Assembly: GCA_963666285.1 (NCBI GenBank)
Contig: OY762711.1
DNA length: 64,000 nt
Reading direction: 5' to 3' (one strand)
From: Sedimentisphaerales bacterium
Lineage (GTDB): Bacteria; Planctomycetota; Phycisphaerae; Sedimentisphaerales; SM23-30
This document shows positions 1 through 1,231 of this stretch, piece after piece (the stretch's first letter is position 1; every line of letters begins with the position of its first letter). A program made the position numbers and the translations under genes. The notes beneath the pieces are model-generated. The model did no database searches and was not told the origin of the DNA. It saw nothing but the letters and a program-made list of their open reading frames with translations.

Positions 1-145
1 AACATTTATCATAAACATATAAATGCAAAGCAGTTAAAAAGTAAGGCATCTTGTTCAATATTTGAATTACAGAGTGCCGGAAAAAGAAAATGCGTCCATT
101 GATTCCATTCCGCTCAAAATAATATAATTTTTTTACGAAAAATAT

Positions 146-174
146 TTGACAACAACCAAAATAGGAGACATAGT
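146..174 (+). promoter_or_regulatory. sigma70-type promoter
   Basis: TTGACA (146-151), 17 bp spacer, CATAGT (169-174); a structured segment begins at about 181. Confidence 0.6.
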
Positions 175-180
175 TTGATA

Positions 181-320
181 GTTGGTTAACAGATAACTGA
201 TGAATGTTGCAATTGCAAATGACCGAAAACCTCAGAGTATCTACAACGAGGTAGGTCGGTGCGGTGGTTGATCGATTGTAGGATCGTCACGCTAAACATT
301 TACCGCGTAATGCGGTTTTG
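181..320 (+). ncRNA. candidate structured sRNA / attenuator leader, family unknown
   Basis: 5' hairpin GTTGGTTA/TAACTGAT with G-U pairs; multibranch core closed by AATGTT(203-208)/AACATT(295-300); ends in ACCGC-GTAAT-GCGGT-TTT terminator-like hairpin; no ORF. Confidence 0.5.
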
Positions 321-410
321 TGTGTTGAGAGTTTTGAGTGTTTGAGTGTAAGTTACGTATTTCTTTACACTTACCTCCTCAACATCTCCCACACCAAACT
401 CCTGCGCGAA
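318..410. repeat. degenerate short tandem repeat / hairpin module
   Basis: TGTTGAG AGTTTTGAG TGTTTGAG repeats; GAGTGTAAG/TTTACACTT arms around ACGTATTTC, a motif that recurs near 60077 and 62255. Confidence 0.45.
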
Positions 411-509
411 TAGATGTTTATAAATAGATGATATAAGATACTGTATATCAAATATTTAGATGCTTTCCTGCACACCTGCAAACTACGATCTTGTGAGTAT
501 AATGACAGA

Positions 510-975
510 ATATGTACGCCTGTTAAGCCGGCTTCTGATGGCAAAGCTGTCGGTAAGTAAATCGCCTGACAATGGCAATTTACGCAGGATTGCATATTGA
601 GACGAAACCCGCCGTGAAAGAGACTCACCATCATGGCACGTGTCCCGGCAAAACACCAGGACATATATAACGGGGTTCGTAGGCTGCTGATTTTGTCGGC
701 AATCTTTGTAAAATGCTTCTTCAGGCCGGCATTATCGACCATATCCGGAGCTTTCCGGGCATGAGAAAGCAGCAAACGCGGCACAAGGAACGCAACGGAA
801 TAGGTTATTGTCATTATTCCGACTGCAAGAAATGCTTTGTACTGCCAAAATAGATTGAGGATTTGCCAGACGCAGTGTACTCTGCTTATGGCCGGTTGCC
901 CACGGTTATTACCGGGGAACCGCACCGTATATCTTATTTCTGGCATAACAAAGCCCAATGCCCGGAGAAGCTCAC
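510..975 (+). ncRNA. candidate large multi-helix ncRNA (~470 nt), family unknown
   Basis: TATAAT at 498-503; long-range helices 527-533/724-730, 584-593/699-709, 602-610/672-680, 748-762/958-973, 767-772/882-887 plus many local hairpins; G-U pairs favour the + strand. Confidence 0.6.
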
Positions 976-1231
976 GCTATTGCAGCATGATTCAGTTTTC
1001 TGAAACCAGCTAAAACTAAAAACTGAAAACAAAAACAAAACAAAGAAAGGAAACACTGCAAAACTCAGCTAAAAAATATTAAATACCATCTGACAAGATA
1101 ACAAACCGGTACTTTGCCACAATTTGGTAAAAATATATCGATTTAAACCGATTTAGCAGTATAATTATTAATGTATTCCATCATATGATGGTGTTTACAA
1201 TTAATTGTCTCTTTATGGAAGGAATAGGTAT

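Follow-up and report, generated by a model that had tools for sequence, protein, structure and literature searches.

The 944-bp unit at positions 113-1056 of the window (the whole stretch of DNA analysed here, 64,000 nucleotides, located at C1:3744001 of the 6.35-Mb genome) is best read, tentatively and with a probability of about 0.45, as a stand-alone gene for an undescribed, lineage-restricted and large (about 835 nt) ornate non-coding RNA. The candidate remains a prediction, with two copies and no family match. A large, undescribed, structured plus-strand RNA had been proposed for this locus in a first-pass annotation and still provides the best reading, while the proposed length, parts of the proposed structure and an argument from G-U pairs failed; the interval given, 498-1005, was also too narrow, covering only the 3' 60% of the larger unit. 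Support comes from the second copy, from a promoter that both copies retain, from the pairing of the two ends in a stem, from two predicted loop-loop interactions and from the richness in A of the plus-strand loops. The features were as follows.

113-1056, plus strand: duplicated unit (944 bp), second copy at C1:3034962-3035898, flanking genes unrelated
146-174, plus strand: sigma70-type promoter with 10/12 consensus matches in both copies, transcription probably starting near 180-181
171-216, plus strand: 5' arm of the end-to-end stem (179-213 in the predicted transcript), with one TAACTGA-type heptamer inside
222-260, plus strand: hairpin with a 14-nt loop, in which 236-242 is complementary to 436-442; identical in both copies
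261-292, plus strand: hairpin, with 262-272/734-747 as an alternative pairing enclosing the middle domain; identical in both copies
293-420, plus strand: long irregular hairpin of 128 nt with low-complexity, heptamer-like arms, holding 8 of the 25 copy differences of 170-1012
421-458, plus strand: AU-rich hairpin, its loop 436-442 being the partner in the first kissing pair
498-503, plus strand: TATAAT, a possible weak internal promoter (9/12 overall, -35 only 3/6) that a promoter scan did not list
509-598, plus strand: three-way domain, hairpin loop 567-573 complementary to 807-813
602-680, plus strand: three-way domain with hairpins 611-637 and 640-664
748-973, plus strand: large domain with a 15-bp closing helix, a purine-rich junction (763-795) and hairpin 796-821
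834-954, plus strand: sub-domain of 748-973 with hairpins 865-892 and 893-922
976-1018, plus strand: 3' arm of the end-to-end stem, pairing with 171-216
1013-1056, plus strand: A-rich tail
371-976, minus strand: frame of 201 codons without a stop, considered a shadow ORF (stop codon in copy B, unfavourable codon usage)

The unit recurs once in the genome, with 902 of 944 positions identical (96%), and neither nhmmer nor piecewise BLAST found a third copy of it, or of any part of it, in that genome. Both copies, here called A (in the window) and B, were present in raw assemblies of the organism's own sequencing runs, and contigs from two other studies held small parts of the unit at low depth and at least 95% identity, with two private changes and no covariation; among the sequencing runs, no RNA run carrying the unit was listed. 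Copy A is neighboured by a divergent gene for a 2239-aa CARDB/Ig-domain protein and by a DegT-family aminotransferase gene, copy B by a divergent Gfo/Idh/MocA gene and a GH2 hydrolase gene; a cis-regulatory leader was rejected because the downstream genes (DegT-family aminotransferase versus GH2 hydrolase) differ. The DNA upstream of the DegT gene was different in three relatives from the genus, and that upstream of the Gfo gene in two, and in each of these cases the unit was missing there. The genes adjoining both insertion sites were variable among the relatives, no empty site for the unit was found, and neither a target-site duplication nor an inverted repeat was seen at the outer edges, 113 and 1056. 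No copy of the unit was found on three phage-like contigs of about 65 kb (C2, C3 and C4), which are 73-82% alike over several kb and form one phage-like family; C3 also shares stretches with two regions of C1, at about 0.97-1.0 Mb and 2.11-2.14 Mb, between which the similarity is about 90%. Directly upstream of the unit there is a further repeat, a 200-bp AT-rich segment (window positions 1-93 plus the preceding 103 bases); a copy with 82% identity, likewise upstream of a divergent gene, lies at C1:769180-769381.

With regards to transcription, both promoter boxes are kept despite 9 differences between the copies in the 57 bases preceding 170; copy B has lost one match in the -35 box and gained one in the -10 box, for a total still of 10/12. 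A score of at least 10/12 for a sigma70-type promoter was reached by 23 of 57 upstream regions of stable RNAs in this genome. Inside the unit from 170 onward only 25 of 843 bases differ (Fisher p 1.3e-4 against the 9 of 57 upstream, for a boundary picked after the data had been seen), with 170-330 identical between the copies, and a later gene-conversion tract could alternatively be the source of this lower divergence. The predicted transcript likely covers about 180-1015 and would thus be about 835 nt long, instead of the approximately 470 nt first suggested. No intrinsic terminator was found in 1013-1056.

The two ends of the predicted RNA can pair in a stem of about 40 bp, having a local score of 22 compared to 8.5 ± 1.7 for 5000 genomic controls, none of which reached it; on the plus strand it contains two U-G pairs and a 3x3 internal loop with tandem G-A. 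Two loop-loop (kissing) pairs were predicted, 236-242/436-442 and 567-573/807-813, each of them a perfect 7 bp and with no base differing in copy B. Two or more such 7-bp pairs were found in 143 of 20 000 loop shuffles (p about 0.007, an approximate value since the loop set was hand-picked from predicted folds). Each kissing pair is confined to one block of the fold, and pairing across 459-508 was weak (p about 0.1). None of the 14 predicted hairpin loops was a GNRA or UNCG tetraloop. The six-base hairpin loop at 876-881 has a self-complementary core and could, as judged partly by eye, pair with a second molecule, with 495-501 or with 233-239.

Several of the helices that had earlier been drawn by eye recurred in the predicted fold, including hairpins 557-583, 611-637, 640-664, 796-821 and 893-922, helix 602-610/672-680 (8 of 9 pairs) and the closure of a second domain by 748-762/958-973, with one bulged base. 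Others did not hold. The proposed closure of a first domain, 527-533/724-730, does pair at 7 of 7 positions, yet the plus-strand fold favours 527-532/549-554 (p 0.91); of helix 584-593/699-709 only 6 of 10 ungapped positions pair, three of them as G-U, the fold instead using 509-523/584-598; 767-772/882-887 pairs at 6 of 6 positions but competes with 872-875/882-885 (p 0.99); and hairpins 535-553 and 839-880 fold in isolation while being absent from the full fold.

That 498-1005 is highly base-paired was borne out as a real folding excess over dinucleotide shuffles, with z about -5: the plus strand reached -176.9 kcal/mol (z -5.1) and the minus strand -179.4 kcal/mol (z -5.3), with 0 of 100 dinucleotide shuffles as stable in either case. 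In the same test the RNase P RNA of this genome gave a z of -2.1, tmRNA -4.0 and an ORF-less group II intron -2.7. The whole unit (170-1020) folded at -298.9 kcal/mol (z -10.1, 0 of 20 shuffles as stable), and folding with DNA parameters was likewise far beyond shuffles. As genomic controls we used 82 of 415 GC-matched windows without ORFs of 200 or more aa; 81 of these 82 did not overlap the unit, and 2 of these 81 reached the same fold excess (about 30 kcal/mol) as 498-1005.

Frequent G-U pairs had been taken to favour the plus strand, an argument that did not stand up, as 12 of 153 pairs on the plus strand and 15 of 157 on the minus strand were G-U and such similar counts give no choice of strand. 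For the whole unit the plus strand was more stable than the minus strand, by 17.5 kcal/mol in copy A and 13.1 kcal/mol in copy B. Among unpaired bases, A made up 45-47% on the plus strand and 37% on the minus strand; the corresponding values for the RNase P RNA, tmRNA and group II intron of this genome were 48-57% in sense and 25-41% in antisense, so that the A enrichment of the plus-strand loops has the same direction as in the sense strands of these control RNAs. The 16 copy differences within 498-1005 do not spare the plus-strand structure and look neutral, with 8 breaks of plus-strand pairs versus 6.9 expected (141 simulations), and no compensatory changes were found among them in these two 96% identical copies. 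The minus-strand fold tolerated the differences somewhat better (4 pairs broken versus 6.7 expected, with 17 of 141 simulations as low). The fold of copy B was 11.6 kcal/mol worse, and this copy may be decaying.

Searches for relatives of the unit returned none. The Rfam scan that had been recommended gave no family match for either copy at E up to 10, except for a viral CRE at 317-401 that was judged to be a chance match. BLAST gave matches in three of 61 relatives (the own genome and two short low-complexity matches), in 2 of 401 genomes of the class and 2 of 25 of the family, in 2 of 401 genomes of the phylum (the own genome and a 32-nt match in a coding region) and in none of the phages and plasmids, with no true homologue in any of these sets. 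Covariance models could be built from the two near-identical copies only and are hence weak, and some of the genomes searched are incomplete; model R1 (745-976) found the own genome only, in sets of 101 and 151 genomes, R2 (507-684) found no homologue in 25 and 151 genomes, and R3 (196-300) found none in 41 genomes, with two matches in the own genome. Pattern scans of viral sequences gave 35, 15, at least 119, 0 and 9 loci (119 loci checked by BLAST and nhmmer, 80 of them by R2), those of genomes 0 and 38 loci and that of metagenomes 5, none of which held up, and scans with back-translated ORFs confirmed 0 of 304 and 0 of 20 stretches. Homologues outside the own genome were thus not found in these searches, as distinct from being absent, and there is no covariation support because no homologue was found. 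We found no description of this RNA in Rfam or in the literature, including the accessible text of PMC10085705 and PMC4679880, while motif catalogues other than Rfam and the supplements of such papers may bear on the matter.

The extent of the RNA could also be different, in that a promoter at 498 would give a transcript of only about 470-500 nt (about 510-1005), with 180-460 as a separate hairpin RNA or leader. We hold such a split, or a shorter RNA only, to be unlikely. The TATAAT box at 498-503 that had been pointed out is indeed present, with 9/12 matches and the first helix starting at 509, and the 5' block (180-460) does fold alone (-81.4 kcal/mol, z -3.6); the confinement of each kissing pair to one block and the weak pairing across 459-508 point in the same direction. 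The -35 box of this internal promoter, however, matches at only 3 of 6 positions, the end-to-end stem joins both blocks, and the two blocks were copied together, with 170-330 identical in the copies.

Two dispersed copies in an IS-rich genome, together with the absence of the unit from the relatives searched, would also suit a non-autonomous mobile DNA element of the MITE-like or single-strand hairpin type, with 171-216 and 976-1018 as its ends and a fold that matters as DNA or is a by-product. Compatible with that origin, which we nevertheless regard as improbable, are the strong fold obtained with DNA parameters and the extension of the repeat by 6 bp to the upstream side of the predicted start. 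Against it, the shared sequence extends 58 bp and 38 bp past the inverted repeat, so insertion of the copies did not proceed by way of these ends; there was no target duplication and no empty site, and a search allowing up to 10 mismatches found the arms nowhere but in the two copies, leaving no partner element that shares them.

The intergenic DNA of this genome is rich in repeats and hairpins, with 143 clusters of repeated ORF-poor segments (500 bp or more) and abundant tandem heptamers. At C1:3156600, 479400 and 5752800, hairpin and heptamer modules recur in intergenic patchworks that also fold strongly (z about -5). The unit may, in a scenario that we consider quite improbable, be a functionless mosaic of nested palindromes and heptamer-type repeats typical of such DNA, duplicated by chance, and the 143 repeat clusters, the 2 of 81 control windows folding as well, the neutral-looking differences and the lack of homologues all agree with that. 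Unlike the modular repeats, though, the unit is matched nowhere else in the genome beyond its two copies, even in part, and a mosaic would have to accommodate a promoter, an end-to-end stem, strand-biased loops and two kissing pairs that coincide.

It is also quite unlikely, as we see it, that the unit is a rearranged or degenerate, ribozyme-like derivative of a group II intron. Such a derivative would have 222-292 as D5/D6-like hairpins placed first, in the manner of circularly permuted (CP) group II RNAs, 567-573/807-813 as the alpha-alpha' pairing of D1 and 293-513 as an excisable linker. In size and in having no ORF the candidate is comparable to CP group II RNAs (about 900 nt, PMC8637638). 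By eye, 261-292 resembles the D6 of the class C intron of this genome, whose D1 has at its start 10 bases identical to 755-764, and group II introns are numerous in the genome. Moreover, Rfam is blind both to a known CP group II RNA and to the class C D5/D6 of this genome: the published CP group II ribozyme pPNAP05 (NC_008761.1; 33-834 of the segment tested) gave no Rfam match, for which reason the silence of Rfam does not exclude the CP group II class. The predicted fold, on the other hand, has no D5-type hairpin (AGC/CGC triad, with five pairs to a 2-nt 3' bulge), in a scan that found both positive controls, and the sole D5-like match, a loose one at 289-323, is at odds with that fold. Alignment to pPNAP05 was no better than chance (59 of 200 shuffles as good), alignments to the three intron types of the genome were not above chance (2/100 for the best of 24), and an HMM of 13 class C D1 regions, which also missed other intron classes, gave no match. 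Nor is there room for D2-D4 after 973, with only about 45 nt beyond the largest domain; this, together with the lack of similarity to pPNAP05, led us to reject the CP group II order D5-D6-linker-D1-D2-D3-D4. A canonical group II intron was also rejected, since RF00029 lists 12 sites in the genome, none of them here, and there was no D1D4 match, which the genome's own introns do give. By eye, no convincing EBS1-IBS1 pairing was found beside a GUGYG-like start. The unit is not a member of the group II class; any kinship would be that of a remote derivative.

Among the group II introns of this genome, an ORF-less intron of about 725 nt is present in nine copies (C1:3630865, 3633820, 4145450, 5266367, 1407852, 2352027, 4935259, 5273520 and 1614086), of which eight are at least 99% identical and one is shorter and more diverged. 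Their D1 is related to that of two RT-bearing introns of 1952 nt, all of them seem to start with a GAGCG-like rather than a GUGYG motif, and the ORF-less copies are likely mobilised in trans. The class C intron, at C1:3.874-3.877 Mb, follows a terminator hairpin, and a frameshift divides its RT gene in two; RF00029 does not list the D5-D6 of this intron at E up to 0.1.

The earlier description of the stretch as gene-free holds for the plus strand; on the minus strand the 201-codon frame is open over 371-976. A small protein gene there (147-195 aa), with the folding as an incidental feature, is very unlikely: an open frame of this length arose in just 4 of 3000 shuffles, it was recorded by a gene caller and 174 codons stay open in copy B, but in that copy a stop codon interrupts the frame, synonymous changes numbered 8 of 20 versus 5.9 expected (no synonymous excess), and the codon score was -0.15 versus +0.15 for the neighbouring gene. 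The frame had no Pfam match, no Atlas match, no homologue beyond itself among proteins of 107-342 aa and, among 1.84 billion representatives, only a chance match to a repeat protein.

If the unit is a gene for a large ornate RNA, the following course of events can be envisaged. Housekeeping RNA polymerase would start near 180, and the ends of the RNA would pair in the stem of about 40 bp, which may close and protect the molecule or serve as a double-strand processing stalk. Some five multi-helix domains would be locked by the kissing pairs 236-242/436-442 and 567-573/807-813, formed either within one molecule or by exchange between molecules, the latter yielding an RNA-only oligomer of the kind described for ROOL, GOLLD and OLE (PMC12286853). 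Its role would be that of a stable accessory scaffold RNA and not that of a regulator of the next gene. The unit was probably acquired from outside the family, as it was not found in 24 family genomes, and a single duplication of the DNA would have included both the RNA gene and its promoter. A more far-reaching version, to our minds doubtful, is that of a new family of very large RNAs, unrelated in sequence to GOLLD, ROOL, OLE or group II RNAs, having a 40-bp end-to-end stem and two kissing pairs; its members might be RNA-only particles, or ribozymes with a new active site in a group II-like body where D5 is replaced by a kissing-loop hairpin, and would spread as a promoter-plus-RNA cassette.

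Complexly folded non-coding RNAs of more than 500 nt are rare in bacteria, the classes known so far being either ribozymes or unusual RNA-only assemblies (PMC5737381, PMC12286853). An RNA of about 835 nt would, if true, be among the largest structured non-coding RNAs of bacteria. The candidate is readily testable, as its promoter is defined, its two copies differ naturally and both 7-bp kissing pairs can be disrupted and then re-established; should it be silent or unstructured, it would illustrate how a strong fold and a second copy can mislead in repeat-rich genomes.

Several known systems were compared with the candidate. RNase P RNA and tmRNA were rejected, as their genes were found elsewhere in the genome and their models had no match here. 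A retron msr-msd was rejected as there is no adjacent RT, the four RT matches being at three group II intron loci with the nearest 130 kb away, and hammerhead, group I, kink-turn and T-loop motifs were rejected by eye only, against their consensus sequences. MITEs and other non-autonomous IS derivatives are ORF-less, occur as dispersed copies and have imperfect terminal inverted repeats. The candidate shares all three traits; it differs in having shared sequence beyond the repeat, no target duplication and no genome element with the same ends. With TAACTGA-type heptamer repeats (PMC4679880) and IVP (PF05635) cassettes it has in common the heptamer-like, low-complexity tracts in the stem arms and at 293-420, whereas in the candidate a single long inverted pair of such tracts encloses a folded, GC-rich core. 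An IVP cassette was rejected, as the flanks of nine IVP genes (9 examined of 10 found) neither resembled the arms nor reached the repeat score of the stem, their best score being 19, from a dispersed hairpin repeat. The ten genes of this four-helix-bundle family (23S rRNA IVP) lie outside rRNA genes, several of them after short tandem repeats and some in tandem.

CP group II ribozymes, as described in the accessible text of PMC8637638, are ORF-less, stand-alone RNAs of about 900 nt with extra loop-loop pseudoknots. The candidate is like them in size, lack of an ORF, predicted stand-alone character, extra loop-loop pairings and lack of an Rfam match, and unlike them in having no D5 catalytic hairpin, no D2-D4 and no GGGCG-type 5' splice-site motif where one would be expected. 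Conversely, closure by a long end-to-end stem, as in the candidate, is not among the features that the accessible part of PMC8637638 describes for these ribozymes.

GOLLD, ROOL and OLE have Rfam models. The candidate differs from these families in giving no match to their covariance models at E up to 10 for either copy, and in having an apparently far narrower range. GOLLD and ROOL are usually found near tRNA genes or in prophages, whereas there is no tRNA gene in the window, the nearest one to copy B is about 60 kb away, and the phage-like contigs C2-C4 carry no copy. (At C1:5226832-5229866 nine tRNA genes are clustered on a single strand, as is typical of mobile tRNA arrays.) GOLLD is often above 800 nt and ROOL about 581 nt, and ROOL, GOLLD and OLE form RNA-only oligomers held together by kissing interactions within or between molecules, as reported in the accessible parts of PMC12286853 and PMC5737381. 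Large size, multistem junctions and kissing loops are found in the candidate in prediction only (about 835 nt, z -10, two 7-bp pairs), and it is in this predicted form that it shares with GOLLD, ROOL and OLE the size class, the many multi-helix junctions, the loop-loop pairings, the lack of an ORF and the stand-alone gene. As modelled, the candidate is not a member of any of these three families, and is one that on paper resembles an ornate RNA.
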